From assembly GCF_006345805.1 (NCBI RefSeq), contig NW_021824047.1, forward strand, positions 1 through 22,396: a DNA stretch of 22,396 bases, written 5' to 3'. The stretch is from Octopus sinensis (taxonomy: Eukaryota). The notes beneath the pieces are model-generated. The model was given only the letters and a program-made list of their open reading frames with translations. It was not told the DNA's origin and did no database searches. The position numbers were made by a program, and so were the translations under genes. Below, one piece after another: positions 1,776 to 22,396 of the stretch. Positions within the stretch are counted from its first letter, which is position 1, and the number at the start of each line of letters is the position of its first letter.

Positions 1776-1857
1776 GGTAGCGTGGCCGAGCGGTCTAAGG
1801 CGCTGGTTTAAGGCACCAGTCTCTTCGGAGGCGTGGGTTCGAATCCCACCGCTGCCA
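1776..1857 (+). tRNA. tRNA-Leu-AAG: tRNA-Leu(AAG), intact
   Basis: 82-nt GGTAGCGTGGCCGAGCGG...CTGGT-TTAAGGC-ACCAG...GGTTCGAATCCCACCGCTGCCA; class II variable arm, A and B boxes, T-run terminator at ~1865-1872. Confidence 0.97.
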
Positions 1858-2401
1858 ATGTACATTTTTTTTGTTTTCTTTCAGTGTTCTTATTCCATGT
1901 TTACATTTTCTAATAAATATTATCTATGAATTATTACTTAATATTTATCAGATTGCTTCATTATCAATTACAACTATATGTGTTGTATACGCGATTTGTT
2001 TGATTCAAGGTGGTGTTCCAGCATGGCCGTAGTCAAATGAGTGAAATATGAACCCCCCCGCCACACACACACACAGTGGTAGAAGTGGAACGAGCAAACG
2101 GTTTGATAAAGAAGGAAGTAATCGGAAGGAGAGTATCCCTGGTATTGACTTTCGGATGAGATCATTCTACCCTTGCGGACGGAATAATGGGTTCAGCATG
2201 AAGTTTTTGGGGCCAGGGTGCATAATGACACAACTTCCCATCCACCCGCTCAACATACATGCATGCATATATGTATATACATACTCACAGGCTTTGAAAA
2301 TGGCGGCATATAAAACACTTCTTCATATAAATATTATCTTACCCAAACAACACGCACTGACATTATAATTTAATATTAATCTGTCAAACGGCAAACGTGT
2401 C

Positions 2402-2483
2402 GGTAGCGTGGCCGAGCGGTCTAAGGCGCTGGTTTAAGGCACCAGTCTCTTCGGAGGCGTGGGTTCGAATCCCACCGCTGCCA
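2402..2483 (+). tRNA. tRNA-Leu-AAG: tRNA-Leu(AAG), intact
   Basis: Identical to 1776-1857; T10 run at ~2496-2505. Confidence 0.97.
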
Positions 2484-2661
2484 TTTGATGCTTCCTTTTT
2501 TTTTTACCCTCTTATTTTGTACATTTCCATATTCGTATTCCGAGTTTATGTTAGGTATACTAAGTTATCATATACAGTTTACTATTGTAAAATGTGATTG
2601 TTAATTGTCCTAGAGAATCGGAAGTGACGACAGTGATATATTAAACTTGCATAAAGAACTC

Positions 2662-3212
2662 CATCTGTCATCGTACGCACGAAACACTTAAGACATTTAT
2701 CGGGCATTGGATATTGTCAGGAATGTATTTGATATCCCATGGGTAGGCTTCATATGTGGGTCTCGACAACTTCTACACTCATGAAGTTGTCGACCATGCG
2801 CTCAATTTTGTTGATTCAAACGATGACAGTATCCTTTCACAAATTCTACACGGGCGATGGATTCCCGCCAAGAAGAAACTCAGGCGACAATATGGGATTA
2901 GCGACGATTTATTTTAATCATAACTTCATAAGCATGTGTTGCGAAACAAATTTAGAAATCGTGGAAAACTGTTCACAAATCTCATTTCGTGCATCAGTGA
3001 CTGTTGCTTCCACGCAAATGTGATTATTTTCATCTTATATAAAATATATCAACAGTTTCCGTGTTACATCAAACATACGTACGGTCTATACATTCGTTAA
3101 GCCAGCGTCATCACTTCCGGCTTCTATCGTAATTCACATTAATTTTTCCGCAATTCTCCGCGACAATCTATATTCCCTTTTTCTTTTTGCGGCGACAAAA
3201 TGCATGTTAAAC
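2662..3212 (+). mobile_element. Merlin (IS1595/ISXO2-like) DNA transposon, 3' remnant
   Basis: Paralog of 13038-14484; putative right terminus GGCGACAAAATGCATGTTAA(A/C)C. Confidence 0.75.
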
Positions 3213-3461
3213 TGTATACATACATGCATACATACATACATACATACATACATACATACATACATACATACATACGTACGTGCGTACGTACGCACGCACG
3301 CACGCACGCACGCATGCACGTAAGTACGCATGCACGTACGTACGCATGCACGTATGTGTATAACCGAACCCTCTCGAATTTATTGAATATTTGCTGTAAC
3401 CTTGTGTAATAAAAAATTCTGTTCCATTTATGTGTTACCTTTAACAATAATTAGGGTTCGG

Positions 3462-3770
3462 TTTCTCTTGGGCCGGAAAGTTTCTTGTCGAAGATACGTC
3501 TCGCTTTTATCCTTCGAAACGTAGAGTAGATGAAACCGTAGCGACTGAGGAAGGGTTTTTTTTTCTTTGTGTTAATTGTGCTGTACTCTATTTTTTTGTT
3601 GTTTTAAAAAAAATGTCCAGTTCCTCTGGTTTGTGTCTATGTTTTCGTTTCTCATTGTGTTCGACGTCCCTTTGGTGTCCTGTACTCATATATGCGTGTA
3701 TATGTACATGTAGAGGTAGGTACGTACATATATGTTTATATATATGCATATGTTTTATTTCATTTATTAA
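3462..3770 (+). mobile_element. Probable Penelope-like relic with strongly degenerate hammerhead (3482-3526)
   Basis: ttc-TTGTCGA-AGATA...TATCCTTC-GAAAC-GTA-gag; duplicated at 5785-6092. Confidence 0.4.
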
Positions 3771-3834
3771 TATATATATGAATATATACATACATATATA
3801 TACATATATGGAAATGTAAAAAAAAAATACAAAT

Positions 3835-3916
3835 TGGCAGCGGTGGGATTCGAACCCACGCCTCCGATGAGACTGGTGCCTTAAACCAGCGCCTTAGACC
3901 GCTCGGCCACGCTACC
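3835..3916 (-). tRNA. tRNA-Leu-AAG: tRNA-Leu(AAG), one variable-loop substitution
   Basis: Reverse complement of consensus; variable arm reads CTCATCGGAG instead of CTCTTCGGAG; poly-T terminator is the A-run at 3818-3827. Confidence 0.93.
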
Positions 3917-3994
3917 GATATGGTGAAGAGCTGATATATTTATAAGAAATTATGTCAATAATGTCAGAGCATGTTGGTTTTGTAAGATAATATT

Positions 3995-4251
<257 letters not shown>

Positions 4252-4595
4252 CGACGGGCTTCTTTCAGTTTCCGTCTACCAAATCCACTCACAAGGCTGT
4301 GATGACCTCTCTGTCCTACTGTGTGTGTGTGCGTGTGTGAGTGTAGGCATATGTTTACATAATACATACATACATACATACACATACACAGATTCATAGA
4401 TAGATAGAGCGAGAAAGAGCGAGTGAGAGAGAGGGGAGTGTGAATGAGAGAGAGAGAGAGAGAGTGTGCATACAGATACACAAAATATCGAAGTATAAGA
4501 CTGTCAAACTGACACACATAAATACTCTAACTTCCTATGAGATTACACAATAGCGTGATAATTTCATTGTAATATATGGACTGTCGAACTGTTCT

Positions 4596-4677
4596 GGTAG
4601 CGTGGCCGAGTGGTCTAAGGCGCTGGTTTTAGGCACCAGTCTCTTCGGAGGCGTGGGTTCGAATCCCACCGCTGCCA
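4596..4677 (+). tRNA. tRNA-Leu-TAG: tRNA-Leu(TAG), intact
   Basis: Anticodon arm CTGGT-TTTAGGC-ACCAG; D-loop GAGTGG; TTTT at 4686-4689. Confidence 0.97.
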
Positions 4678-4758
4678 CATGTTAGTTTTGGCAACATTTC
4701 ATTGATCAGATTTAGATTCGATAACTACATTATGTTGATAAATATATACATGTAAAGT

Positions 4759-5070
4759 ATTCTTTTCTACTCTAGGCACAAGACCTGAGAGTTTTGGGGA
4801 CGGGGCCAGTCATTGGATCGGCCCCTGTACGCAACTGGTACTTGATTTATCGACCCAAAAGGATGAAAGCAAAGTTGACCTCGGCGGAATTTGAACTCAA
4901 GTATCAAGTCAGACGAAATACCTATTTCTTTACTACCCACAAGGGGCTAAACACAGAGGAGACAAACAGGACAGACAAACGGATTAAGTCGATTATATCG
5001 ACCCCAGTGCGTAACTGGTACTTATTTAATCGAGCCCGACGGAATTTGAACTCAGAACGTAACGGTAGAC
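4759..5070 (-). mobile_element. Composite tRNA-derived SINE, head lost
   Basis: B-box-like GAGTTCAAATTCC and core CTTTCATCCTTT.GGGTCGATAAA..AGTACCAG on the minus strand. Confidence 0.8.
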
Positions 5071-5071
5071 C

Positions 5072-5535
5072 CATATGTCTGTGGGTCTAGACAAGTTCTA
5101 CACTCATGAAGTTGTCGACCATGCGCTCAATTTTGTTGATTCAAACGATGACAGTATCCTTTCACAAATTCTACACGGGCGATGGATTCCCGCCATGAAG
5201 AAACTCAGGCGACAATATGGGATTAGCGACGATTTATTTTAATCATATCTTCATAAGCATGTGTTGCGAAACAAATTTAGAAATCGTGGAAAACTGTTCA
5301 CAAATCTCATTTCGTGCATCAGTGACTGTTGCTTCCACGCAAATGCGATTGTTTTCATCTTATATAAAATATATCAAGTGTTCATGTTATATTTAACATA
5401 CGTACGTTCTATACATTCGTTAAGCCAGCGTCATCACTTCCGGCTTCTATCGTAATTCACGTTAATTTTTCAGCAATTTTTCGCAACAATTTATATTCCC
5501 TTTTTCTTTTTGCGGCGACAAAATGCATGATAACC
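5072..5535 (+). mobile_element. Merlin transposon remnant, truncated by duplication junction
   Basis: Paralog of the other copies; fused to the SINE at 5070/5072. Confidence 0.75.
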
Positions 5536-5784
5536 TGTATACATACATGCATACATACATACATACATACATACATACATACATACATACATACATACGT
5601 ACGTGCGTACGTACGCACGCACGCACGCACGCACGCATGCACGTAAGTACGCATGCACGTACGTACGCATGCACGTATGTGTATAACCGAACCCTCTCGA
5701 ATTTATTGAATATTTGCTGTAACCTTGTGTAATAAAAAATTCTGTTCCATTTATGTGTTACCTTTAACAATAATTAGGGTTCGG

Positions 5785-6092
5785 TTTCTCTTGGGCCGGA
5801 AAGTTTCTTGTCGAAGATACGTCTCGCTTTTATCCTTCGAAACGTAGAGTAGATGAAACCGTAGCGACTGAGGAAGGGTTTTTTTTCTTTGTGTTAATTG
5901 TGCTGTACTCTATTTTTTTGTTGTTTTAAAAAAAATGTCCAGTTCCTCTGGTTTGTGTCTATGTTTTCGTTTCTCATTGTGTTCGACGTCCCTTTGGTGT
6001 CCTGTACTCATATATGCGTGTATATGTACATGTAGAGGTAGGTACGTACATATATGTTTATATATATGCATATGTTTTATTTCATTTATTAA
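5785..6092 (+). mobile_element. Second copy of the 3462-3770 relic
   Basis: Near-identical to 3462-3770. Confidence 0.4.
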
Positions 6093-6156
6093 TATATATA
6101 TGAATATATACATACATATATATACATATATGGAAATGTAAAAAAAAAATACAAAT

Positions 6157-6226
6157 TGGAAGCGGTGGGATTCGAACCCACGCCTCCAAAGAGACTGGTG
6201 GCCTTAAACCGCTCGGCCACGCTACC
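6157..6226 (-). pseudogene. tRNA-Leu(AAG) pseudogene with 13-nt internal deletion
   Basis: 70 nt; D-arm 3' side and anticodon-stem 5' side deleted, 1-nt insertion, acceptor-stem and variable-arm substitutions. Confidence 0.92.
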
Positions 6227-6304
6227 GATATGGTGAAGAGCTGATATATTTATAAGAAATTATGTCAATAATGTCAGAGCATGTTGGTTTTGTAAGATAA
6301 TATT

Positions 6305-6594
<290 letters not shown>

Positions 6595-6939
6595 CGACGG
6601 GCTTCTTTCAGTTTCCGTCTACCAAATCCACTCACAAGGCTGTGAGGACTTCTCTGTCCTACTGTGTGTGTGTGCGTGTGTGAGTGTAGGCATGTGTTTA
6701 CATAATACATACATACATACATACATACATACACATACACAGATTCATAGAAAGATAGAGAGAGAAAGAGCGAGTGAGAGAGAGGGGGAGGGTGAATGAG
6801 AGAGAGGGAGTGTGCATACAGATACACAAAATATCGAAGTATAAGACTGTCAAACTGACACACATAAATACTCTAACTTCCTGAGATTACACAATAGCGT
6901 GATAATTTCATTGTAATATATGGACTGTCGAAGTGTTCT

Positions 6940-7021
6940 GGTAGCGTGGCCGAGTGGTCTAAGGCGCTGGTTTTAGGCACCAGTCTCTTCGGAGGCGTGG
7001 GTTCGAATCCCACCGCTGCCA
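6940..7021 (+). tRNA. tRNA-Leu-TAG: tRNA-Leu(TAG), intact
   Basis: Identical to 4596-4677. Confidence 0.97.
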
Positions 7022-7102
7022 CATGTTAGTTTTGGCAACATTTCATTGATCAGATTTAGATTCGATAACTACATTATGTTGATAAATATATACATGTAAA
7101 GT

Positions 7103-7416
7103 ATTCTTTTCTACTCTAGGCACAAGACCTGAGAGTTTTGGGGACGGGGCCAGTCATTGGATCGGCCCCTGTACGCAACTGGTACTTGATTTATCGACCC
7201 AAAAGGATGAAAGCAAAGTTGACCTCGGCGGAATTTGAACTCAAAGTATCAAGTCAGACGAAATACCTATTTCTTTACTACCCACAAGGGGCTAAACACA
7301 GAGGAGACAAACAAGGACAGACAAACGGATTAAGTCGATTATATCGACCCCAGTGCGTAACTGGTACTTATTTAATCGAGCCCGACGGAATTTGAACTCA
7401 GAACGTAACGGTAGAC
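7103..7416 (-). mobile_element. Composite tRNA-derived SINE, head lost
   Basis: Near-identical to 4759-5070. Confidence 0.8.
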
Positions 7417-7417
7417 C

Positions 7418-7880
7418 CATATGTCTGTGGGTCTAGACAAGTTCTACACTCATGAAGTTGTCGACCATGCGCTCAATTTTGTTGATTCAAACGATGACAG
7501 TATCCTTTCACAAATTCTACACGGGCGATGGATTCCCGCCATGAAGAAACTCAGGCGACGATATGGGATTAGCGACGATTCATTTAAATCATATCTTCAT
7601 AAGCATGTGTTGCGAAACAAATTTAGAAATCGTGGAAAACTGTTCACAAATCTCATTTCGTGTAACAGTGACTGTTGCTGCCACGTAAATGCGATTGTTT
7701 TCATCTTATATAAAATAAATCAAGTGTTCATATATTTAACATACGTACCTTCTATACATTCGTTAAGCCAGCGTCATCACTTCCGGCTTCTATCGTAATT
7801 CACATTAATTTTTCAGCAATTTTTCGCGACAATTTATATTCCCCCCCTTTTTTTTTGCGGCGACAAAATGCATGTTAACC
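7418..7880 (+). mobile_element. Merlin transposon remnant
   Basis: ORF 7421-7798: YTHEVVDHALNFVD...KKLRRRYG...FKSYLH..VLRNKF, ISXO2-like C-terminus. Confidence 0.78.
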
Positions 7881-8131
7881 TGTATACATACATACATACA
7901 TACATACATACATACATACATACGTAATTACGCACGCACGAACGCACGCACGCACGCACGCATGCACGTACGTACGCATGTAAGTATGTGTATAACCGAA
8001 CCCTATCGAATTTATTAAATATTTGCTGTAACCTTGTGTAATAAAAAATTCTGTTCCATTTACGTGTTACCTTTAACAATAATTAGGGTTCGGTTACTCT
8101 TGGGCCACCGATCATATATATGTATACATAC

Positions 8132-8164
<33 letters not shown>

Positions 8165-8202
8165 ATATATATATATATGGAAATGTAAAAAAAAATTCAA
8201 AT

Positions 8203-8284
8203 TGGCAGCGGTGGGATTCGAACCCACGCCTCCGAAGAGACTGGTGCCTTAAACCAGCGCCTTAGACCGCTCGGCCACGCTACC
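8203..8284 (-). tRNA. tRNA-Leu-AAG: tRNA-Leu(AAG), intact
   Basis: Exact reverse complement of 1776-1857. Confidence 0.97.
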
Positions 8285-8383
8285 GATATGTCGTAGCTAT
8301 GATATATTTATATGAAATTATGTCAATAATGTCAGAGCATGTTGGTTTTGTTTATATAGATATATATATGAATATATATATAT

Positions 8384-8448
8384 ACAGCCTCTCGTCGATA
8401 GCGCCAATGTAGGTAAGGGAAGTCGGCAAAATGGATCCGTACCTTCGG
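8384..8448 (+). rRNA. 28S (LSU) rRNA fragment, non-functional insertion
   Basis: ACAGCCTCT..TCGATAG..CAATGTAGGTAAGGGAAGTCGGCAAAATGGATCCGTACCTTCGG matches the conserved LSU motif GTAGGTAAGGGAAGTCGGCAA...GATCCGTAACTTCGG. Confidence 0.85.
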
Positions 8449-8461
8449 ATATATATATATA

Positions 8462-8719
8462 TGTAGGTCCCGGGTTGAGTCGTGGTTAACCACAGTAAAT
8501 AAGGTACTCAATACATGGCAGAGTAAATTAATTTATTTTATAGAAGGAGCTTCTACAGGACTAGAACTGTTTCATTCGAATGAAATGATCAGGAAGCTTG
8601 GCGTCAAGAATAGTTTTGGCATATATACATTTAGGCAGATTTGATGGGGTGGTGGTGGGGGACTTTTTTTGGGGTAGGCAGGGCACAAACTGTCTTTCTT
8701 AGGGGAGTGGTCTAAAAAA
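8462..8719 (-). mobile_element. Penelope-like relic with near-intact hammerhead (8548-8598)
   Basis: Minus strand AGCTTC-CTGATCA-tttcattcgaat-GAAACAG-ttctagtc-CTGTA-GAAGCT; absent from the paralogous (TA)n tracts. Confidence 0.65.
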
Positions 8720-8848
8720 TATTCATATATATATATACGTCGGGCTTCTTTCAGTTTCCGTCTACCAAATTCACTCACAGGGCTGTGAGGACCTCTCTGT
8801 CCTACTGTGTGTGTGTACGTCTGAGAGTGTAGGCATGTGTTTACATAA

Positions 8849-8882
<34 letters not shown>

Positions 8883-9098
8883 CAGATGCATAAAAAGATA
8901 GATAGATAGAAAGGGCGAGAAAGAGCGAGTAAGAGAGAGGGGGAGGGTGAATGAGAGAGAGAGGGAGTGTGCATACAGATACACAAAATATCGAAGTATA
9001 AGACTGTCAAACTGTCACACATAAATACTTTATCTTCCTATGAGATTACACAATAGCGTGATAATTTCATAGTAATATATGGACTACCGAAGTGTTCT

Positions 9099-9180
9099 GG
9101 TAGCGTGGCCGAGTGGTCTAAGGCGCTGGTTTTAGGCACCAGTCTCTTCGGAGGCGTGGGTTCGAATCCCACCGCTGCCA
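9099..9180 (+). tRNA. tRNA-Leu-TAG: tRNA-Leu(TAG), intact
   Basis: Identical to 4596-4677. Confidence 0.97.
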
Positions 9181-9261
9181 CATGTTAGTTTTGGCAAAAT
9201 TTCAATGATCAGATTTAGATTCGATAACTAAATTATTTTGATAAATATATACATGTAAAGT

Positions 9262-9780
9262 ATTCTTTTCTACTCTAGGCACAAGACCTGAATGTTTTGG
9301 GGACGTGGTCAGTCATTGGATCGACCCCTGTACGCAACTGGTACTTGATTTATCGACCCCAAAAGGATGAAAGCAAAGTTGACCTCGGCGGAATTTGAAC
9401 TCAAATTATCAAGTCAGACGAAATACCTATTTCTTTACTACCCACAAGGGTCTAAACACAGAGGAGACAAACAAGGACAGACAAACGGATTAAGTCGATT
9501 AGATCGACCCAGTGCGTAACTGGTACTTATTTAATCGAGCCCGGCGGAATTTGAACTCAGAACGTAACGGTAGACGAAATACCTATTTCTTTACTACCCA
9601 CAAGGGACTAAACACAGAGAGGATAAACAAGGACAGACAAACGGATTAAGTCGATTACATCGACTCCAGGATGAACGGCAAAGTCAACCTCGGCGGAATT
9701 TGAACTCAGAACGTAGCGGTAGACGAAATACCGCTAAGCATTTGTCCGGCGTGCTAACGATTCTGCCAGCTCGCCGCCTT
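9262..9780 (-). mobile_element. Composite tRNA-derived SINE, 3 subunits
   Basis: Head GGCGGCGAGCTGGCAGAATCGTTAGCACGCCGG... with A and B boxes. Confidence 0.85.
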
Positions 9781-9874
9781 ATACATATAGAACATTGATA
9801 TATAAAACATCGTTTTTCCCACAAGAAATACATACTCATGATGACTATATTGTAACGCAGCATTTCATGTTATC

Positions 9875-9956
9875 GGTAGCGTGGCCGAGCGGTCTAAGGC
9901 GCTGGTTTAAGGCACCAGTCTCTTCGGAGGCGTGGGTTCGAATCCCACCGCTGCCA
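9875..9956 (+). tRNA. tRNA-Leu-AAG: tRNA-Leu(AAG), intact
   Basis: Identical to 1776-1857; T-runs follow within ~12 nt. Confidence 0.97.
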
Positions 9957-10056
9957 ATATGCATTCCTTTTGTTTTGTTTCAACGTCTAACTGTAACTCG
10001 TTTTTTGTATTCTCTCTCCATTTTCTTTTCTGTCCTCGTCCATTCTTTGTCTAGAA

Positions 10057-10246
10057 CGGTGCTCTGCAACGGGTTTGTCGCGACACACTGGTGTGTCACG
10101 AGACGATGCTTGGTGTGCCGCAGTGTAACCTGAATATAATTTTATCCCCTATATTTTTAGTTATATTGTTTGTACAGGTGTATTCCGAATTTTGGAAAGA
10201 ATGTAAACGTACCGCAAGTGAAAAAAAAAAGGTTGTGGACCACTTA
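10057..10246. mobile_element. hAT (Charlie/Buster-like) MITE
   Basis: Imperfect TIRs C(A/G)GTGCTCTGCAAC / GTTGTGGACCACTT; 8-bp TSD-like GTCTAGAA / CTCTAGAA matching the NTCTAGAN preference; internal CGACACACTGGTGTGTC hairpin. Confidence 0.7.
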
Positions 10247-10656
10247 CTCTAGAAGAACGTATGCTCGAAGCATAAAAAGCTTTTCCTTCTATTTTCTTGA
10301 GCGTTTGTTTGTTTGCTTTTTTTTCCAATCTCGTTTTCGTGATACCTTTAATTTTTGGTCCATATATTTGTGGGTGTGTCTGTGTGTGCGTGTGTACGCG
10401 ATCGGGCGGCACCTTGTGCTAATGTTTTCTATAGCTTCGGTTAGAAAAATTTAGAAGATAGCCACTGTGTCGAAGCCCGTTTTATATAAGTATATATGAG
10501 AGGGGGTGGGATGAGAGAGAGAGAGAGTGCATATAGATACACAAAATATCGAAGTATAAGACTGTCAAACTGTCACACATAAATACTCTAACTTCCTATG
10601 AGATTACACAATAGCGTGATAATTTCATAGTAATATATGGACTGCCGAACTGTTCT

Positions 10657-10738
10657 GGTAGCGTGGCCGAGTGGTCTAAGGCGCTGGTTTTAGGCACCAG
10701 TCTCTTCGGAGGCGTGGGTTCGAATCCCACCGCTGCCA
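10657..10738 (+). tRNA. tRNA-Leu-TAG: tRNA-Leu(TAG), intact
   Basis: Identical to 4596-4677. Confidence 0.97.
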
Positions 10739-10818
10739 CATATTAGTTTTGGCAACATTTCATTGATCAGATTTAGATTCGATAACTACATTATTTCATA
10801 AATATATACATGTAAAGT

Positions 10819-11215
10819 ATTCTTTTCTACTCTAGGCACAAGGCCTGAAAGTTTTGGGGACGGGGCCAGTCATTGGATCGGCCACTGTACGCAACTGGTA
10901 CTTGATTTATCGACCCCAAAAGGATGAAAGCAAAGTTGACCTCGGCGGAATTTGAACTCAAATTATCAAGTCAGACGAAATACCTATTTCTTTACTACCC
11001 ACAAGGGTAGTAAACAGAAGGAGCAAACAAGGACAGACAAACGGATTAAGTCGATTGATCGACCCCAGTGCGTAACTGGTACTTAATTTATCGACCCCGA
11101 AAGGATGAAAGACAAAGTCGACCTCGGCGGAATTTGAACTCAGAACGTAGCGGCAAACGAAATACCGCTAAGCATTTCGTCCAGCGTGTTATCGTTTCTG
11201 CCAGCTCGCTGCCTT
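10819..11215 (-). mobile_element. Composite tRNA-derived SINE, 2 subunits, with TSD
   Basis: TATACATGTAAA at 10805-10816 and 11215-11226. Confidence 0.85.
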
Positions 11216-11309
11216 ATACATGTAAAATATTGATACATAAAAAATCGTTTTTCCCACAGGAGATGCATACTCATGGTGACTATATTGTAATGTAACCCTG
11301 CAGCTCGTC

Positions 11310-11391
11310 GGTAGCGTGGCCGAGCGGTCTAAGGCGCTGGTTTAAGGCACCAGTCTCTTCGGAGGCGTGGGTTCGAATCCCACCGCTGCCA
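11310..11391 (+). tRNA. tRNA-Leu-AAG: tRNA-Leu(AAG), intact
   Basis: Identical to 1776-1857. Confidence 0.97.
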
Positions 11392-11560
11392 ATCAACTTT
11401 TAATAACGTTTTTGGGTATATTTGTTTTTTCATATTTCATATACATATGAAAATTACAACAGCTCAAGACATTATGGATGCGACAAACGTCTAACTGTAA
11501 CTCGTTTTTTGAATTCTCTCTCCATTTTCTTTTCTGCCCTCGTCTATTCTTTGTCTAGAA

Positions 11561-11747
11561 CAGTGCTCTGCAACGGGTTTGTCGCGACACACTGGTGTGT
11601 CACGAGACGATGCTTGGTGTGCCGCAGTGTAACCTGAATATAATTTTATCCCCTATATTTTTAGTTATATTTTTTGTACAGGTGTATTCCGAATTTTGGA
11701 AAGAATATAAATGTACCGCAAGTGAAGAAAAGGTTGTGGACCACTTA
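11561..11747. mobile_element. hAT (Charlie/Buster-like) MITE
   Basis: Paralog starting CAGTGCTCTGCAAC, same flanks. Confidence 0.7.
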
Positions 11748-12486
11748 CTCTAGAAGAACGTATGCTCGAAGCATAAAAAGCTTTTCCTTCTATTTTCTTG
11801 AGCGTTTGTTTGTTTGCTTTTTTTTCAATCTCGTTTTCGTGATACCTTTAATTTTTGGTCCATATATTTGTGTGTGTGTCTGTGTGTGCGTGTGTACGCG
11901 ATCGGGCGGCACCTTGTGCAAATGTTTTGTATAGCTTCGGTTAGAAAAATTTAGAAGATAGCCACTGTGTCGAAGCCTGTTTTATATATGTATATATGTA
12001 AGTGTGTTTATCCTTGTCAAGTGTTTGTCCCTCACTGTCGATAGGCGACCGGTTCTGCTTTCTTTATGTCCTCTTAATATGGCGGTTCGGTAAAAGGAGC
12101 CTGCACAATAATTACCAGAAATTTTGAGAATGACCTTATACCCTCCAATTCGAAATAAGGCGGAGTGCACGATGTATGTTATATTTCCTGATATTATCCA
12201 TGATGGCAAAAGTATGCTTCCAAAGTCACCCGTGTTCTTTTCTGTTGCTGTCACAGTTTATCATTCTATAATTTTGTTTCAGCTGTTTTCAAATTTGATG
12301 TACTGATGTACTGATGTATGCCTGGTATGAAAATGAATTTCATTTTTGTCATAAGTTATCAGATAAGGAAGTTAATAGCTTTTAAATCTTGCAAAGTGGG
12401 TAACTTTATCCAATCGAAAGCCACAGACATATATATTGGTGGCTGTCTCCATATATATGGAAATTATATGACATGCCGACAGCTCT

Positions 12487-12568
12487 GGTAGCGTGGCCGA
12501 GCGGTCTAAGGCGCTGGTTTAAGGCACCAGTCTCTTCGGAGGCGTGGGTTCGAATCCCACCGCTGCCA
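12487..12568 (+). tRNA. tRNA-Leu-AAG: tRNA-Leu(AAG), intact, recombinant flanks
   Basis: Body identical to consensus; 5' flank matches the 19577 copy, 3' flank matches the 2402 and 20192 copies. Confidence 0.97.
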
Positions 12569-12747
12569 TTTGATGCTTTTTATTTTTTTACTCCCTTATT
12601 TTGCACATTTTGATATTCGTATTCCAAGTTTATGTTAGGTATACAAAGTTATCATATACAGTTTACTATTATAAAAAAAGTGATTGTTAATTGTCCTAGA
12701 GAATCGGATGTGACGACAGTGATATATCAAACTTGTATAAAGAACTC

Positions 12748-13026
12748 TTAAGCAGATCAGGCTGAAAATGTCGCTAGAAGCTAGGATCAGAAAGCATAGA
12801 TTGACATATTTTGGTCATATTATGCGGAGAAAATCCCTGGAGAAGGACATCATGCTCGGAATGGTCAGTGGCAAGAGAGGAAGAGGCCCAGCAAGAACCC
12901 GCTGGCTTGACACCATCAAAAGTGATACCGGAATGGACATAGCCAATCTGATATGAACTATCTAGAGGACACTGATCAATCGAGTAGGAGAGAGTCGACT
13001 TCGACTGAGCGGATAGATAGAGATAG
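12748..13026 (+). mobile_element. 5'-truncated RTE-clade LINE with 11-bp TSD
   Basis: RLTYFGHIMRRKSLEKDIMLGMVSGKRGRGPARTRWLDTIK; GATA-repeat tail; TSD ATAAAGAACTC at 12737-12747 and 13027-13037; empty site at 2651-2661. Confidence 0.92.
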
Positions 13027-13037
13027 ATAAAGAACTC

Positions 13038-14484
13038 CATCTGCCATCGTACGCACGAAACATTTTGGACCTTTATCGGGCATTGGATATTGTCAGGAAT
13101 GCTTTTGATATCCCATGGGTAGGCTTCATATGTGGGTCTAGACAACTTCTACACTCATGAAGTTGTCGACCATGCGCTCAATTTTGTTGATTCAAACGAT
13201 GACAGTATCCTTTCACAAATTCTACATGGGCGATGGATTCCCGCAATGAAGAAACTCAGGCGACAATATGGGATTAGCGACGATTTATTTAAATCATATC
13301 TTCATAAGAATGTGTTGCGAAACAAATTTAGAAATCGTGGAAAACTGTTCACAAATCTCATTTCGTGCATCAGTGACTGTTACTTCCACGTAAATATGAT
13401 TGTTTTCATCTTATCTCGAAATAAAGAGGTCAAATCCTGTACACTATGGATCTCTATTGCAAGCAGACCTGGACACAATGCAGCAGTGGATCAAGGACTG
13501 GCAACTCAAGCTGGCTGTGGACAAATGTACCACCATGCATTTTGGGAGGAGAAACCCGGCGTCCACCTACTCTCTCCACAACACTAGTCTCAAAAAGTCT
13601 TCAAGTGAACGTGACCTGGGTGTTATTGTCGACAGTGATTTGCGTTGGACAAAACACATCACTAAAATTGTCTAGAAGGCTGAGGGTGTCTTGGCATCAC
13701 TCACCAAATCCTTTGTGAGCCGCTCTCCGGCTATCTATCTGCGGCTTTATATAGCTATGGTAAGACCTCACCTGGAATTTGCATCACCGGTCTGGAACCC
13801 CTATCTTGCCCAGGACATCAATCGTCTGGAAGCTGTTCAGCGACGTGCAACCAAAAGAATACCCTCCATCAGGCATTTGCCATATCCTGAACGCCTTACT
13901 TCCCTGGGCATGGACACATTGAAACTCCGACGTCTGGCAGCTGACTTGGCAGACACCCATAACATTATCAACCATCGCACAAACAATAACTCTGAGCACC
14001 TCTTCAAACTCCACCCATCTAACACCCGTGGACATATTTACAAAGTCAGAAAACAGCACAGCTCTCCATTTTTTCACGCTGAGAGTTGCTGAAGCGTGGA
14101 ACAAACTGCCGGCATCGGTTGTTAGTTGTCGGAGCACTGCATCCTTCAAAACTTCCATGCTTCCTGAGATTCGCCAACACCACACTTGATTTTCTCCCCT
14201 CCATACACACACAAGCATGTTCACTTTCCAGACATTTCTACATTACTGCATGTACTTTATATGCACTTTCTGACAAGTTGTGGTGCACCTGAGCACTGTA
14301 TACAATAATTTCATTATATATATCAAGTGTTCATGTTATATTTAACATACGTACCTTCTATACATTCGTTTAGCCAGCGTCATCACTTCCGGCTTCTATC
14401 GTAATTCACATTAATTTTTCAGCAATTTTTCACGACAATATATATTTCCTTTTTCTTTTTGCGGCGACAAAATGCATGTTAACC
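13038..14484 (+). mobile_element. Merlin transposon remnant interrupted by a CR1/L2 LINE
   Basis: Frame from 13048: RTHETFWTFIGHWILSGMLLISHG*ASYVGLDNFYTHEVVDHALNFVD...KKLRRQYG...SYLH, a decayed WILPGTxIxSDxWxxY...HxxVNHxxNFVD motif of DDE_Tnp_IS1595. Confidence 0.8.
13415..14317 (+). mobile_element. 5'-truncated CR1/L2-clade LINE (RT C-terminus and 3'UTR), pseudogenised
   Basis: LQADLDTMQQWIKDWQLKLAVDKC...ERDLGVIVDSDLRW..HI...LYIAMVRPHLEFASPVWNPY...LEAVQRRATK...TRGH...WNKLP; internal stop and frameshift; absent from four paralogous sites. Confidence 0.92.
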
Positions 14485-14514
14485 TGTATACATACATACA
14501 TACATACATACGTA

Positions 14515-14590
<76 letters not shown>

Positions 14591-14667
14591 CCGCCCGCAC
14601 GTACGCACGCACGTACGTACGCACGTACATACGCATGCACGTACGTACGCGTGTAAGTATGTGTATA
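14485..14667. repeat. (TACA)n-(CGCA)n-(CGTA)n compound microsatellite
   Basis: Paralogs at ~3213-3361, 5536-5684, 7881-7993 and 21256-21405, always right after the Merlin terminus. Confidence 0.9.
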
Positions 14668-14791
14668 ACCGAACCCTATCGAATTTATTGAATATTTGCT
14701 GTAACCTTGTGTAATAAAAAATGCTGTTCCATGTATGTGTTATCTTTAACAATAATTAGGGTTCGGTTACATATATACATACATACATGTA

Positions 14792-14847
14792 TGACGAAAG
14801 AAATGCTGATTTTATTTGGCTAATCTTGAAACGTTGACGTACTCAAA
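14792..14847 (+). ncRNA. 5'-truncated copy of the same hammerhead ribozyme
   Basis: Starts at TGACGA, lacking C3 and the 5' strand of stem I; stem III ACGT-TG-ACGT; GTA then CTCAAA. Confidence 0.75.
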
Positions 14848-15349
14848 CGATCTAGGTACTTGTGATATTTTTCTGTATTTACCTCAAACCTTCGTGAGCT
14901 GTCTGGAGTAAACATTATCTGAGAGAGAAATTTTCTTTAAGTAGTAGAAATGCTAAGAAAATTTTTTTGGCTGCTATTTCTACTAAGTTCAGTATGTGGC
15001 ACAAGTAATTTATTTTACTAAGCCCTAATTATATAATGTAATATTTTGAATTCACCTTAAATGGTCCTTTTACATACTGAACACTTGGTGAAATTGATTA
15101 ATTAATTAATTTTACCCTCAATTGTTGATATTATAATTCATTTCTCTCTGTCATACTGCCTCGGTTCTCGCGGTTAAAATATAGTGTTTGCTAGATAGAC
15201 CACGTGGGTGGAAGGGGGAGTGCAGAATTTTACGCCTGCGCATTTTGAATTTGTTGACACTGTTAGTTGGAGTGGTTCATCTGAAGCGACAAGTTCGTTG
15301 ATAGGTAAAGTTCCTTCTTTTTAGTGTTTCCAAATCCAAATTAAGAAAT

Positions 15350-15412
15350 TTTGAGCTGACGAAAGAAATGCTGATTTTATTTGGCTAATCTTGAAACGCT
15401 GACGTACTCAAA
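15350..15412 (+). ncRNA. Type I hammerhead ribozyme, apparently intact
   Basis: Stem I TTTGAG/CTCAAA; core CTGACGA; stem II AAGA..GCTGA-ttttat-TTGGC..TCTT; GAAA; stem III ACG-ctga-CGT; cleavage triplet GTA, cut after 15406. Confidence 0.85.
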
Positions 15413-15688
15413 CGATCTATGTACTTGTGATATTTTTCTGTATTTACCTCCAAACTTCGTGAGCTGTCTGGAGTAAACGTTATCTGAGAGAAATTTTCTT
15501 TAAGTAGTAGAAATGCTAAGAAAATTTTTTTTGGCTGCTATTTCTACTAAGTTCAGTATGTAGCAAAGTAATTTATTTTACTAAGCCCTAATTATATAAT
15601 GTAATATTTTGAATTCACCTTAAATGGTCCTTTTACATACTGAACACTTGGTGAAATTGATTAATTAATTAATTTTACCCTCAATTGT

Positions 15689-15726
<38 letters not shown>

Positions 15727-15753
15727 GGAAATGTAAAAAAAAAAAATACAAAT

Positions 15754-15835
15754 TGGCAGCGGTGGGATTCGAACCTACGCCTCCGAGGAGACTGGTGCCT
15801 TAAACCAGCGCCTTAGACCGCTCGGCCACGCTACC
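15754..15835 (-). tRNA. tRNA-Leu-AAG: tRNA-Leu(AAG), variant or possible pseudogene
   Basis: T-stem G51A (A-C mismatch), variable loop T>C, native 5' flank deleted. Confidence 0.8.
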
Positions 15836-16177
15836 GACGGGTTTCTTTCAGTTTCCGTCTACCAAATCCACTCACAAGGCTGTGAGGACCTCTCTGTCCT
15901 ACTGTGTGTGTGCGCGTGTGTGAGTGTAGGCATGTGTTTACATAATACATACATACATACATACACATACACAGATTCATAGAAAGATAGAGAGAGAAAG
16001 AGCGAGTGAGAGAGGGGGAGTGTGAATGAGAGAGAGAGAGAGAGTGTGTGCATACAGATACACAAAATATCGAAGTATAAGACTGTCAAACTGTCACACA
16101 TAAATACTTTATCTTCCTATGAGATTACACAATAGCGTGATAATTTCATTGTAATATATGGACTACCGAAGTGTTCT

Positions 16178-16259
16178 GGTAGCGTGGCCGAGTGGTCTAA
16201 GGCGCTGGTTTTAGGCACCAGTCTCTTCGGAGGCGTGGGTTCGAATCCCACCGCTGCCA
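16178..16259 (+). tRNA. tRNA-Leu-TAG: tRNA-Leu(TAG), intact
   Basis: Body identical to 4596-4677; proximal terminator reduced to TTT. Confidence 0.96.
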
Positions 16260-16340
16260 CATGTTAACTTTGGCAAAATTTCAATGATCAGATTTAGATT
16301 CGATAACTACATTATTTTGATAAATATATACATGTAAAGT

Positions 16341-16896
16341 ATTCTTTTCTACTCTAGGCACAAGACCTGAGAGTTTTGGGTACGGTGCCAGTCATTGGAT
16401 CGGCCACTGTACGCAACTGGTACTTGATTTATCGACCCCAAAAGGATGAAAGCAAAGTTGACCTGGGCGGAATTTGAACTCAAAGTATCAAGTCGGGCGA
16501 AATACCTATTTCTTTACTACCCACAAGGGGCTAAACACAGAGGAGACAAACAAGGACAGACAAACGGATTAAGTCGATTAGATCGACCCAGTGCGTAACT
16601 GGTACTTATTTAATCGAGCCCGGCGGAATTTGAACTCAGAACGTAACGGTAGACGAAATACCTATTTCTTTACTACCCACAGGGGGCTAAACATAGAGAA
16701 AGGACAAACAAGGACAGACAAACGGATTAAGTCGATTACATCAACCCCAGTGCGTATCTGGTACTTATTTAATCGATCCCGAAAGGATGAACGGCAAAGT
16801 CGACTCGGCGGAATTTGAACTCAGAACGTAATGACAGACGAAATACCGGTAAGCATTTCGCCCGGCGTGCTAACGATTCTCCCAGCACGGTGCCTT
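16341..16896 (-). mobile_element. Composite tRNA-derived SINE, 3 subunits
   Basis: Paralog of 9262-9780; TATACATGTAAA on both sides. Confidence 0.85.
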
Positions 16897-16989
16897 ATAC
16901 ATGTAAAACATTGATATATAAAACATCGTTTTCCCACAGGAGATGCATACTCATGATGACTATATTGTAACGTAGTAATTCTTCTCGTC

Positions 16990-17071
16990 GGTAGCGTGGC
17001 CGAGCGGTCTAAGGCGCTGGTTTAAGGCACCAGTCTCTTCGGAGGCGTGGGTTCGAATCCCACCGCTGCCA
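16990..17071 (+). tRNA. tRNA-Leu-AAG: tRNA-Leu(AAG), intact
   Basis: Identical to 1776-1857. Confidence 0.97.
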
Positions 17072-17169
17072 ATATACATTCTTTTTGTTTTGTTTCAACG
17101 TCTAACTGTAACTCGTTTTTTGTATTCTCTCTCCTTTCTTTTCTGTCCTCGTCCATTCTTTGTCTAGAA

Positions 17170-17360
17170 CGGTGCTCTGCAACGGGTTTGTCGCGAACAC
17201 ACTGGTGTGTCACGAGACGATGCTTGGTGTGCCGCAGTGTAACCTGAATATAATTTTATCCCCTATATTTTTAGTTATATTTTTTGTACAGGTGTATTCC
17301 GAATTTTGGAAAGAATATAAATGTACCGCAAGTGAAAAAAAAAAGGTTGTGGACCACTTA
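17170..17360. mobile_element. hAT (Charlie/Buster-like) MITE
   Basis: Paralog of 10057-10246. Confidence 0.7.
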
Positions 17361-17773
17361 CTCTAGAAGAACGTATGCTCGAAGCATAAAAAGCTTTTCT
17401 TTCTATTTTTTGAGCGTTTGTGTTGTTTGCTTTTTTTTCAATCTCGTTTTCGTGATACCTTTAATTTTTGGTCCATATATTGTGTGTGTGGTCTGTGTGT
17501 GCGTGTGTACGCGATCGGGCGGCACCTTGTGCTAATGTTTTCGATAGCTTCGGTTAGAAAAATTTAGAAGATAGCCACTGTGTCGAAGCCCGTTTTATAT
17601 AAGTATATATGAGAGGGGGTGGGGTGAGAGAGAGAGAGAGTGTGTGCATACAGATACACAAAATATCGAAGTATAAGACTGTCAAACTGTCACACATAAA
17701 TACTTTATCTTCCTATGAGATTACACAATAGCGTGATAATTTCATAGTAATATATGGACTGTCGAACTGTTCT

Positions 17774-17855
17774 GGTAGCGTGGCCGAGTGGTCTAAGGCG
17801 CTGGTTTTAGGCACCAGTCTCTTCGGAGGCGTGGGTTCAAATCCCACCGCTGCCA
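17774..17855 (+). tRNA. tRNA-Leu-TAG: tRNA-Leu(TAG), T-loop variant
   Basis: T-loop TTCAAAT (G57A), still within the B-box consensus GTTCRA. Confidence 0.94.
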
Positions 17856-17937
17856 CATATTAGTTTTGGCAACATTTCATTGATCAGATTTAGATTCGAT
17901 AACTAACATTATTTTGATAAATATATACATGTAAAGT

Positions 17938-18333
17938 ATTCTTTTCTACTCTAGGCACAAGGCCTGAAAGTTTTGGGGACGGGGCCAGTCATTTGATCGG
18001 CCACTGTACGCAACTGGTACTTGATTTATCGCCCCCAAAGATGAAAGCAAAGTTGATCTCGGCGGAATTTGAAATCAAATTATCAAGTCAGACGAAATAC
18101 CTATTTCTTTACTACCCACAAGGGTAGTAAACAGAAGGAGCAACAAGACAGACAACAACGGATTAAGTCGATTGATCGACCCAGTGCGTAACTGGTACTT
18201 AATTTATCGACCCCGAAAGGATGAAAGACAAAGTCGACCTCGGCGGAAAATTTGAACTCAGAACGTAGCGGCAAACGAAATACCGCTAAGCATTTCGTCC
18301 AGCGTGTTATCGTTTCTGCCAGCTCGCTGCCTT
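17938..18333 (-). mobile_element. Composite tRNA-derived SINE, 2 subunits
   Basis: Paralog of 10819-11215. Confidence 0.85.
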
Positions 18334-18423
18334 ATACATGTAAAATATTGATAATAAAAAATCGTTTTTCACAGGAGATGCATACTCATGGTGACTATAT
18401 TGTAATGTAACCCTGCAGCTGTC

Positions 18424-18505
18424 GGTAGCGTGGCCGAGCGGTCTAAGGCGCTGGTTTAAGGCACCAGTCTCTTCGGAGGCGTGGGTTCGAATCCCACCGC
18501 TGCCA
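18424..18505 (+). tRNA. tRNA-Leu-AAG: tRNA-Leu(AAG), intact
   Basis: Identical to 1776-1857. Confidence 0.97.
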
Positions 18506-18672
18506 ATAACTTTTAATAACGTTTTTGGTATATTTGTTTTTTCATATTTCATATACATATGAAAATTACAACACAGCTCAAACATTATGGATGCGACAAA
18601 CGTCTAACTGTAACTCGTTTTTTGAATTCTCTCTCCATTTTTTTTCTGCCCTCGTCTATTCTTTGTCTAGAA

Positions 18673-18858
18673 CAGTGCTCTGCAACGGGTTGTCGCGACA
18701 CACTGGTGTGTCACGAGACAATGCTTGGTGTGCCGCAGTGTAACCTGAATATAATTTTATCCCCTATATTTTTAGTTATATTTTTTGTACAGGTGTATTC
18801 CGATTTTGGAAAGAATATAAATGTACCGCAAGTGAAGAAAAGGTTGTGGACACCCTTA
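18673..18858. mobile_element. hAT (Charlie/Buster-like) MITE
   Basis: Paralog of 11561-11747. Confidence 0.68.
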
Positions 18859-19576
18859 CTCTAGAAGAACGTATGCTCGAAGCATAAAAAGCTTTTCCTT
18901 CTATTTTCTTGAGCGTTTGTTTGTTTGCTGTTTTTTCAATCTCGTTTTCGTGATACCTTTAATTTTTGATCCATATATTTGTGTATGTGTCTGGGTGTGC
19001 GTGTGTACGGATCGGGCGGCACCTTGTGCTAAGTTTTCTATAGCTTCGGTCAGAAATATTTAGAAGCCCGTTTTATTATGTATATATGTAAGTGTGTTTA
19101 TCCTTGTCAAGTGTTTGTCCCTCACTGTAGATACGCGACCGGTTCTGCTTTCTTTATGTCCTCTTAATATGGCGGTTCGGTAAAAGGAGCCGGCACAATA
19201 ATTCCCAGAAACTTTGAGAATGACCTTGTACCCTCCAATTCGAAATAAGGCGGTGTGCACGATGTATGTTATATTTCCTGATATTATCCATGATGGCAAA
19301 AGTATGCTTCCAAAGTCAACCGTGTTCTTTTCTGTTGCTGTCACAGTTTATCATTTTATAATTTTGTTTCAGCTGTTTTCAAATTTGATGTACTGATGTA
19401 GTTTTGTATGCCTGTTATGGAAATGAAATTCATTTTTGTCATAAGTTAACAGATAAGGAAGTTAATAGCCTTTAAATCTTGCAAAGTGGGTAACTTTATC
19501 CAATCGAAAGCCACAGACATATATATTGGTGGCTGTCTCCATATATATGGAAATTATATGACATGCCGACTGCTCT

Positions 19577-19658
19577 GGTAGCGTGGCTGAGCGGTCTAAG
19601 TCGCTGGTTTAAGGCATCAGTCTCTTCGGAGACGTGGGTTCGAATCCCACCGCTGCCA
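19577..19658 (+). pseudogene. tRNA-Leu(AAG), degenerate, probable pseudogene
   Basis: Four substitutions: C12T and G24T (D-stem disrupted), C40T (anticodon-stem wobble), G>A at the end of the variable arm. Confidence 0.8.
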
Positions 19659-20191
19659 ATATGCATCCTTTTTGTTTTGTTTCAGTGATCTTGTTCCATG
19701 TTCACATTTTCTAATAAATATGATCTATGAATTATTACTTAATATTTATCAGATTGCTTCATTATCAATTACAACTATATGTGTTGTATGCGCGATTTGT
19801 TTGATTCAAGGTGGTGTTCCAGCATGGCCGTAGTCAAGTGACTGAAACAAAAAAAAAGAACCCTCCACCCACCCACACACACAGTTGTAGAAGTGGAACG
19901 AGCAAAGGGTATGATAAAGAAGGAAGTAATCGGAAGGAAAGTATCCCTGGTATTGACTTTCGGATGAGATCAATCTACCCTTGCGGACGGAATAAAGGGT
20001 TCAGCATGAAGTTTTTGGGACCAGGGTGCATCCACCCGCTCAACATACATGCATGCATATATGTATATACATACTCACAGGCTTTGAAAATGGCGGCATA
20101 TAAAACACTTCTGCATATAAATATTATCTTACCCAAACAACACGCACTGACATTATAATTTCCTATTAATCTGTCAAACAGTTAACGTATT

Positions 20192-20273
20192 GGTAGCGTG
20201 GCCGAGCGGTCTAAGGCGCTGGTTTAAGGCACCAGTCTCTTCGGAGGCGTGGGTTCGAATCCCACCGCTGCCA
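20192..20273 (+). tRNA. tRNA-Leu-AAG: tRNA-Leu(AAG), intact
   Basis: Identical to 1776-1857. Confidence 0.97.
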
Positions 20274-20451
20274 TTTGATGCTAATTTTTTTTTACCCCCT
20301 TATTTTACACATTTCCATATTCGTATTCCGAGTTTATGTTAGGTATACAGGGTTATCATATACAGTTTACTATTATAAAAAAAGTGAGTGTTAATTGTCC
20401 TAGAGAATCGGATGTGACGACAGTGATATATCAAACTTGTATAAAGAACTC

Positions 20452-21255: not shown

Positions 21256-21528
21256 TGTATACATACATACATACATACGTACGTACGTACGCACGCTCGC
21301 ACGCACGCACGCACGCACGCACGCACACACGCCCGCCCGCCCGCACGTACGTACGCATGCACGCACGTACGTACGCACGCACGTACGTACGCGTGTAAGT
21401 ATGTGTCTAACCGAACCCTATCGAATTTATTGATTATTTTCTGTAACCTTGTGTAATAAAAAAATGCTGTTCCATTTATGTGTTATCTTTAACAATAATT
21501 AGGGTTCGGTTACATATATACATACATA

Positions 21529-21850
21529 TCTCTTATTATAAAGGGCAGATTTTATCTGCCTCCCTTTGTAACTTATAGAAATCTACATATAGGATTTCTT
21601 CAATTACAATTTACCTAGCATTTTTAGAGTAAATGCATGGTCATGCCAGGTCCAGTTTTTAAAATTTAAACTCTCAATTAAGCAAAATTTACAGAAAACT
21701 CACATTCTGGTGTGTATGTCAAATGTTTTTCTTAATGTGGTTTACACACCACACGCAAACGCACACACACACAAAGGGAGCGAATTGTTCACTGACGCTA
21801 TCACCCTTCTCCTCCTTTTCTTTGCAAGGTTGCAGCTATTAAAGTGAAAA
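21529..21850 (+). mobile_element. Helitron-like 5' end
   Basis: Homology to the cluster unit stops abruptly at A|TCTCTTATTATAAAG; subterminal hairpin GGCAGAT-tt(t)-ATCTGCC. Confidence 0.45.
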
Positions 21851-21853
21851 CGT

Positions 21854-22160
21854 GAATCCGACAGCGATAAAGAAAACGAATTGGTACCTGAATGGAGTGA
21901 AAATTTAAAAACTGTTTCATTCGGTGATTTTTCTGAAGAAACTGCACCAAGCCACAGACTTTCCCAGAAGAGTAAAGCCTTAGACTATTTCTATTTACTT
22001 TTTCGAATGAGCCCATTTGAATCATACGGCGGCAGAAACGAAACGTTACGCTAAACGTAAACAAAACGAAAGAAAGGATAGTTTGTTATTTCCCACAACC
22101 TTAAATGAAATTAAGGCCTATTTTGCCATAAATATTATTATGGGTATCAGAAAGTTTACC
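21854..22160 (+). pseudogene. piggyBac (PGBD-like, DDE_Tnp_1_7) transposase N-terminal fragment
   Basis: ESDSDKENELVPEWSENLKTVSFGDFSEETAPSH...KALDYFYLLF (frameshift) AAETKRYA...PTTLNEIKAYFAINIIMGIRK. Confidence 0.8.
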
Positions 22161-22396
22161 CAGAATAACAAATTCTATCGTAAAATTGTGTTGTATACCC
22201 AATTGAATATTAGCTAATAACCCATTTTCTATAGCGATGTTGAACAAAATTTTAATAATTTTATATATTGTTGAATTACCTGTATCTACTACTGCAATTA
22301 GAGTCACTTTGTGACAAAAATTATAGTATAGAATAGGTTGAGGACATTTCATTAAATTATCTTCCAAAATTCACGTTAATATATTGATAAATAAAA

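Follow-up and report, generated by a model that had tools for sequence, protein, structure and literature searches.

Results of our analysis indicate that the stretch of Octopus sinensis DNA studied here (22,396 nt, hereafter the window) carries a copy of a young family of non-LTR retrozymes, a class of ribozyme-bearing repeats that is already known, but whose insertion-end signature is unusually clean in this family. It is likely that members of the family have been reverse-transcribed into (TA)n microsatellites by a protein of a Penelope-like element (PLE) acting in trans. The strict pairing of two types of insertion ends (A and B), the template haplotypes shared by them, and the covarying structures at the sites where these ends lie tie the retrozyme to PLE-type insertion and make a model of its priming testable.

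The copy in the window (14792-15695, forward strand) is a 5'-truncated, single-arm insertion of 1.6 units ending at site B. An earlier note on this DNA, made from the sequence alone, described a non-coding insertion of ~902 bp within a (TACA)/(TA) tract, and this description holds. In the matching unit of the surrounding tRNA repeat (8083-8179) the tract is unbroken, which identifies 14792-15695 as an insertion, and no open reading frame (ORF) of more than 50 aa lies within it. The TA/TACA tract at ~14770-14791 forms the 5' side of the target, the (TA)n target tract, to which no strand is assigned, spans 15691-15726, and no target duplication is readable in the (TA)n tract around the insertion. 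The ~1.6 direct repeats are likewise real, as the two units (from 14792 and from 15357) align over 343 nt with seven substitutions and four gap bases. Their GACGTA sites finish at 14841 and 15406, which confirms the claimed spacing of exactly 565 nt, and the predicted monomer, counted from cut site to cut site, corresponds to 14842-15406 of the forward strand (34% GC); its circular form folds with z = -4.7 in comparison to 60 shuffled sequences. A 565-bp unit is, however, a property of the window copy and not a fixed length, since the monomer has 563 nt in the near-duplicate contig C8813 (L084-L085), which matches the window at 98.9% identity over 15.6 kb, contains the same insertions, and probably is a haplotig or a segmental duplicate. 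Simple patterns for the Pol III A and B boxes and for the octamer gave no match in the window copy. A TTAGGG-like motif 5' of the insertion was considered as an inverted A end and rejected, being part of the tRNA repeat unit.

As had been claimed, the second unit contains a complete type I hammerhead (15350-15412, forward strand) with a predicted cut after A15406. It is composed of stem I (TTTGAG at 15350-15355 and CTCAAA at 15407-15412), the CTGACGA core sequence (15356-15362), a two-part stem II (15363-15392), GAAA (15393-15396), and a stem III of 3 bp. A hammerhead descriptor found this core as the sole one in the window and fired in one of 200 Markov-shuffled windows; the comparison with Rfam, suggested in the earlier note, reported no hammerhead at E<=1 in the window or at E<=10 in the region 15250-15500. 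The hammerhead of the first unit (14792-14847, forward strand) is indeed truncated inside the core: it starts at TGACGA, lacks the 5' strand of stem I and C3, and retains a palindromic stem III (14831-14840) followed by the GTA site at 14841. The quasi-palindromic stem III ascribed to the element is therefore a feature of unit 1 (ACGTTGACGT) and not of the intact ribozyme (ACGCTGACGT). The latter has a C at position 15399, a variant present in one of 158 family units and also in contig C8813, which breaks the palindrome and is predicted to weaken the dimeric stem III of the window copy (calculated dimer duplex energy of -4.9 kcal/mol with itself and -8.1 kcal/mol with unit 1, instead of -12.8 kcal/mol). 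The first pair of stem II is A-U in this copy, and not the usual G-C, and minimum-energy prediction for the isolated hammerhead does not yield its active form (z = -0.5). Cleavage at the second site only, unless complemented in trans, had been expected in the earlier note. Our modelling allows a cut at 14841 as well, by an alternative fold in which the unit 2 core is combined with stem III and the stem I 3' strand of unit 1. Predicted energies of the cross-unit fold, of the monomer core, and of the unconstrained fold are -162.7, -161.4, and -166.4 kcal/mol, respectively, and owing to the similar energy of the cross-unit fold the window copy could release a monomer in cis.

In the genome searched (2.72 Gb in 13,516 contigs), a 24-mer of the ribozyme has 316 exact matches and a 24-mer of the 3' region has 605, compared to 0 for the reversed controls; looser patterns give 3,013 and 4,956 matches, and the family sits within a superfamily of ~3,000-5,000 such motif matches. 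Family copies diverge from the column majority by 1.3%, which indicates that the family is young. The main sample of 75 loci comprises the window copy, 14 loci from the best DNA matches (with 1.5-kb flanks), and 60 pattern loci (with flanks of ~3.5 kb) out of ~69 found among the first 100 ribozyme 24-mer matches; 20 extra loci were picked for the absence of the ribozyme 24-mer. Head-to-tail arrays reach ~4.6 units and are spread over many contigs, and 152 of the 155 unit-unit junctions lie exactly at the cut site. Long arrays are uncommon, two cut sites being crossed by 27 of 125 arms. At the level of the family, each unit has a type I hammerhead with an intact core, and arms with two or more consecutive complete hammerheads, by which a recent preprint recognises active retrozymes (bioRxiv 10.64898/2026.07.22.740005), occur as well; in the window copy the hammerhead of unit 2 is complete and that of unit 1 truncated. 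Sister families, encountered in these searches or in the flanks of loci, have periods of ~555, 558, 560, 597, and 535 bp and are 65-85% identical in their alignable parts. Multimers and covarying stems, for which the earlier note had suggested a genome-wide search, are present, and the hundreds of copies, their arrays, and the lack of ORF linkage in 95 loci bear out the idea of a non-autonomous, ribozyme-bearing dispersed family.

The insertions of this family bear the signature of PLEs: a (TA)n target, even 5' truncation, inverted arms, and two fixed 3' ends. When the monomer is numbered from the cut site, 114 of the 125 arm 3' ends at the 75 loci fall into two intervals, A (190-206, 61 ends) and B (286-296, 53 ends), and 89 of these 114 ends run into TA-rich DNA. 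The genomic ends are located at these two fixed internal sites, ~90 nt apart, and not at the ribozyme cleavage site. The 5' ends, by contrast with the fixed 3' ends, are spread evenly over the monomer (KS p = 0.25, n = 120); four arms with an apparent 5' end at the cut site represent a query-boundary artefact. An inverted 5' arm is present in 48 of the 75 loci. Among 46 two-arm loci, 38 combine an A end with a B end and the other eight show one irregular end each; AA and BB combinations are absent. In a second sample of 20 loci, 15 were two-armed, including 12 clear AB cases, one likely AB case, and two AA rows with the same flanks, which brings the pooled numbers to 50 clear AB, two AA rows, and no BB. 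With the likely case taken as AB and the AA rows counted once, the AB arrangement accounts for 51 of 52 loci, as compared to 50% for independent ends (p = 2e-14). In the sister families AB pairs occur in 16 of 20 cases, the remaining ones being one BB, one AA cut by the locus edge, and two irregular. Of the 46 inversion junctions, 29 show an overlap of 1-10 nt between the arms (a raw count, with no null expectation attached), and the B arm extends past site A in 36 of the 38 AB loci. Since a B cDNA would have to pass site A, strand displacement would be needed; PLE reverse transcriptases are not known to have an RNase H. Fold-back copying as the sole source of the inversions was rejected, as the arm lengths do not fit it in 17 of the 38 AB loci. 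The same two end classes at (TA)n are found in an ORF-bearing PLE family of this genome, in which 12 insertions have a tail of ~55 nt and 18 do not. The combination of a one-sided tail, an inverted 5' arm, and a microsatellite target, as in PLE-mobilised elements, is present in the retrozyme family.

Each of the two end sites is preceded by a hairpin. In unit 1 of the window copy, a conserved 11-bp helix (14988-14998 with 15071-15081) surrounds hairpin A (~14999-15024) and the UA-rich site A (~15031-15044), the whole occupying 14988-15081 of the forward strand. It is followed by hairpin B (15087-15116; 13 bp, z = -3.1) and the UA-rich site B (~15127-15135), which together span 15087-15135 of the same strand. 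In unit 2, also on the forward strand, the 5' strand of the helix, hairpin A, and site A recur at 15552-15607, whereas hairpin B and site B (15650-15695) form the actual 3' end of the insertion, where reverse transcription presumably started. Each hairpin is closed by GG/CC, after which come CU and the UA-rich stretch. In an alignment of 12 copies (two of the family and 10 of sister families), nine of the 18 ribozyme pairs are changed on both sides, an outcome obtained in one of 500 shuffles and compared to 2-3 pairs in slid controls, although the aligned copies are related, so that these covariation counts overstate the number of independent events. The three stem III pairs are invariant in these 12 copies, 10 of which have a broken first pair in stem II. 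In the folds of the 3' region, 97% of cells are paired; two-sided changes affect four of the 30 pairs and are confined to the helix and hairpin A, and those in hairpin B are one-sided only. Within the family itself, there are three changes per 2084 core calls, as compared to 1046 per 73954 (1.4%) outside the ribozyme. A lack of conservation of the core and stems among genomic copies had been named in the earlier note as one of the signs against its interpretation; in fact, core and stems are kept across the sister families. In several families, CCCTAA precedes site A (15022-15030 in the window), which may be a matter of chance; this motif is the complement of the TTAGGG telomere repeat. Certain distant tandem families (L037/L083, L074, L156, L254, and L227, with periods of ~535, 597, and 560) have little sequence identity but retain an end architecture of two hairpins, and no canonical hammerhead core was found in the 560-bp tandem family.

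The polymorphisms of the units provide information on the template. At 39 polymorphic columns compared in 93 loci, units in tandem differ at a rate of 2.4%, opposite arms at 2.9%, and separate loci at 18.8%, while the sharing of rare variants amounts to 42%, 23%, and 0.45%, respectively. Together with the near-exclusive A+B pairing, the shared haplotype indicates a single template and a single complex as the origin of both ends. The presence of 49 haplotype groups among 77 loci points to many source copies. A circular form of the template is moderately supported. We also see as possible, although short of probable, a variant within the main explanation in which the same PLE machinery copies a linear multimeric read-through RNA, DNA duplication keeps the arrays long, and the ribozyme only trims host read-through RNA. 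The composition of the arrays speaks in part for this variant, as the polymorphic columns within arrays are uniform 50 times and mixed 20 times (20 of 70), and in three arrays (L012, L044, and L018) the middle units share changes that are absent from the terminal fragments; such mixed columns and middle-unit changes indicate that duplication at the DNA level or assembly polishing contributes. In vitro, moreover, unprocessed RNA was the main PLE substrate, according to the part of that work available to us (PMC11167929). On the other hand, the haplotype groups imply many sources while long arrays are rare, with 27 of the 125 arms crossing two cut sites, and there is no pile-up of 5' ends at the cut site. 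Where at least three units cover a rare variant, it occurs in all units 11 times, in some units 29 times, and in one unit 112 times. These numbers speak against a pure rolling circle, while the 11 variants present in every unit, some of them on both arms, argue against a linear template. One array (L087, C3:105574000-105581000) alternates in an ABAB pattern, as would result from a dimeric circular template or from a two-unit duplication.

Parts of the unit were also found in public sequencing runs, where data under four organism labels share a portion of its words. None of these data are declared as RNA. Contigs from four runs under two labels cover the unit; those of runs guessed to be RNA span it in full and continue from its end into its start, and those of a DNA-like run do likewise. 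The guessed-RNA contigs are uninformative as regards strand, ends, level, and circularity. All such contigs have T at the position corresponding to 15399, where the window copy has C.

It is improbable that the repeats are solo or tandem pseudo-LTRs (pLTRs) left behind by an autonomous PLE with full copies that escaped detection. The anatomy of the insertions is that of PLEs, and pLTR descent is made plausible by the ~24 of 57 Xenopus retrozyme families that match PLE pLTRs in the accessible portion of a recent preprint (bioRxiv 10.64898/2026.07.22.740005). The head-to-tail joins, exact in nearly all cases, have no ORF between them, however, and no PLE ORF running into the repeat on the same strand was found in the 95 family loci (1.5-3.5 kb flanks), nor one joined to the repeat in ~50 sister-family loci. 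Constant linkage to a full Penelope ORF, which in the earlier note was to decide against a retrozyme, is thus absent from these 95 loci. The PLE fragments near family copies are separate insertions in the same TA tracts, with TA-ended termini of their own. Two candidates for a closer association, an apparent PLE inside an array (L257) and a PLE upstream of a sister hammerhead (L042), were rejected, each being a separate TA-ended insertion. A search for the partner, based on a GIY-YIG family and four PLE protein queries with 30 loci each, covered 150 loci of thousands of candidates and thus sampled the PLE families incompletely; apart from neighbouring separate insertions, no PLE in it shares the ribozyme or the A/B region. 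It is very improbable that the element is a DNA repeat of the satellite type that recombination has spread and whose ribozyme motif is vestigial, because the fixed 3' ends, random 5' truncation, inversions, strict target, and compensatory stem changes oppose this view, even though some DNA-level duplication is visible and Rfam has no hammerhead match. A retrozyme of the plant LTR type, whose hammerhead is of type III and lies in LTRs, with PBS/PPT and a target duplication of 4 bp, was rejected on the basis of the type I topology, the tandem units, and the ends at internal sites.

The insertion of a non-LTR retrozyme by a PLE protein in trans may be envisaged as follows. Read-through transcripts of arrays would cleave themselves, probably as dimers formed via the palindromic stem III, so that the unit is likely to excise itself as a small RNA, and we lean slightly towards the ligation of the cleaved monomers into circles. 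A PLE reverse transcriptase/GIY-YIG complex, probably a dimer, would then bind the region of hairpins A and B and cut both strands of a (TA)n tract. One cDNA would be primed at the UA-rich site A and another at site B of the same RNA; both would cross the ribozyme junction backwards, stop at random, and be joined, often by short microhomology, giving rise to head-to-head arms with a one-sided tail of ~90 nt. Some arrays would later be lengthened by duplication at the DNA level. The product seen in the window has one arm, ends at B, and shows the predicted weakening of stem III and no evident promoter. Several observations stand against this explanation, namely that no partner PLE was encountered in the 150 loci, that the arrays are not perfectly uniform, that the first stem II pair is A-U here and broken in most aligned copies, that the active fold is not the minimum, and that in published work ribozyme cleavage was dispensable for PLE insertion in vitro (PMC11167929) and was seen in only one of nine predicted Xenopus retrozymes (bioRxiv 10.64898/2026.07.22.740005).

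In a more specific form, which we put forward tentatively and regard as rather doubtful, a PLE dimer would grip the two hairpins, which are homologous and lie 90 nt from each other, on a single circular RNA and perform a twin-primed rolling-circle reverse transcription, with two strand-displacing cDNAs, one for each nicked (TA)n strand. If this were the case, a single process would account for the tail of the PLE type, the inverted head-to-head arms, and the arrays of the retrozyme, and the superfamily, with its thousands of copies and many compensating sister families, would constitute a map of the minimal cis signals for PLE priming.

Non-LTR retrozymes have been defined, and their circles shown in coral, mussel, and axolotl, in a study whose accessible part also proposes that retrozyme circles are reverse-transcribed by PLEs or LINEs (PMC7229834). 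Retrozymes of Xenopus have been linked to PLE pLTRs, with self-cleavage in one of nine predicted ones and, in the part of the preprint available to us, no mollusc sampled (bioRxiv 10.64898/2026.07.22.740005). The octopus family resembles the retrozymes described in these excerpts in its ORF-less tandems, one type I hammerhead per unit, low GC content, highly self-paired monomer, dispersed copies, and the presence of PLEs in the same genome. It differs from them in that most of its copies have 1-2 units with inverted arms, and its monomer of 565 nt compares to 150-450 nt (PMC7229834) or 51-972 nt (bioRxiv 10.64898/2026.07.22.740005). In the portions of both papers at our disposal, mobilisation by PLEs is argued from co-occurrence and pLTR similarity, without tails or paired A/B ends. 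The short stem III with a palindromic loop is similar to that of the newt and axolotl satellite retrozymes and of PLE dimeric hammerheads, so far as excerpts of the relevant papers describe them (PMC4209133, PMC7229834), while the long two-part stem II, its weak or mismatched first pair, and the palindrome-breaking C of the window copy set the octopus ribozymes apart.

In the case of PLEs, available parts of the literature describe inverted pLTRs, a one-sided tail of 30-40 bp, a (TA)n bias, and a palindromic stem III (PMC3846280, PMC8557442, PMC4209133). The octopus insertions share with those of PLEs, as presented in two of these sources (PMC3846280, PMC8557442), the AT-rich or (TA)n target, the partial tandems, the head-to-head inverted 5' arm, the tail on one end only, and ends unrelated to the ribozyme cut; they differ in having no ORF and a tail of ~90 nt instead of 30-40 nt. 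In vitro studies of the PLE Poseidon_Ac, as far as the text available to us reports, resulted in the identification of two internal start sites of reverse transcription that define the tail, with both strands cut, a dimer predicted, and ribozyme cleavage dispensable for insertion (PMC11167929). The start sites proposed here follow conserved hairpins and are UA-rich like the target, while the anole element of the same study uses an AC-rich stem-loop non-homologous to its target. Our literature search, which covered the text of papers, returned no study of retrozymes in cephalopods or of pairing between retrozyme ends, and the words ribozyme, retrozyme, and hammerhead do not occur in the main text of an Octopus repeat annotation, in the version consulted in part (PMC13282606); the family may already be named in Repbase/Dfam. 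As the insertion scars themselves show the PLE signature, they bear on the question of which enzyme moves animal retrozymes and on how PLEs begin and end an insertion. An ORF-free RNA of 565 nt with two mapped start sites and covarying hairpins offers a compact substrate for studies of PLE priming and of the use of circles.

The surroundings of the insertion contain further elements. Positions 1776-20274 of the window contain 18 tRNA-Leu genes, with AAG and TAG anticodons, that are clustered in tandem on both strands in repeated, microsatellite-rich units of ~0.6-2.3 kb. A second, unrelated insertion (21516-22396) lies in a different tRNA repeat unit, at the corresponding TA site; it contains a piggyBac-like transposase fragment that is broken (PF13843; E 1e-4, which does not pass the cut-off), and its start resembles what we take to be a Helitron-type end. 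Elsewhere in the genome, a very young PLE family (L311-L340; 94-100% amino-acid identity over 150 scored matches, open frames of up to 1,044 aa) targets TA and has a tail of ~55 nt and a variant hammerhead core; its activity and its tail, but no other feature, make it a candidate for the partner PLE of the retrozyme. The genome seems to be very rich in hammerhead elements, as the flanks of the loci L008-L260 contain dozens of unrelated type I hammerheads, many of which end in (TA)n within 300 nt, and stem III is fully palindromic in 46 of 58 distinct hammerhead contexts outside the family.
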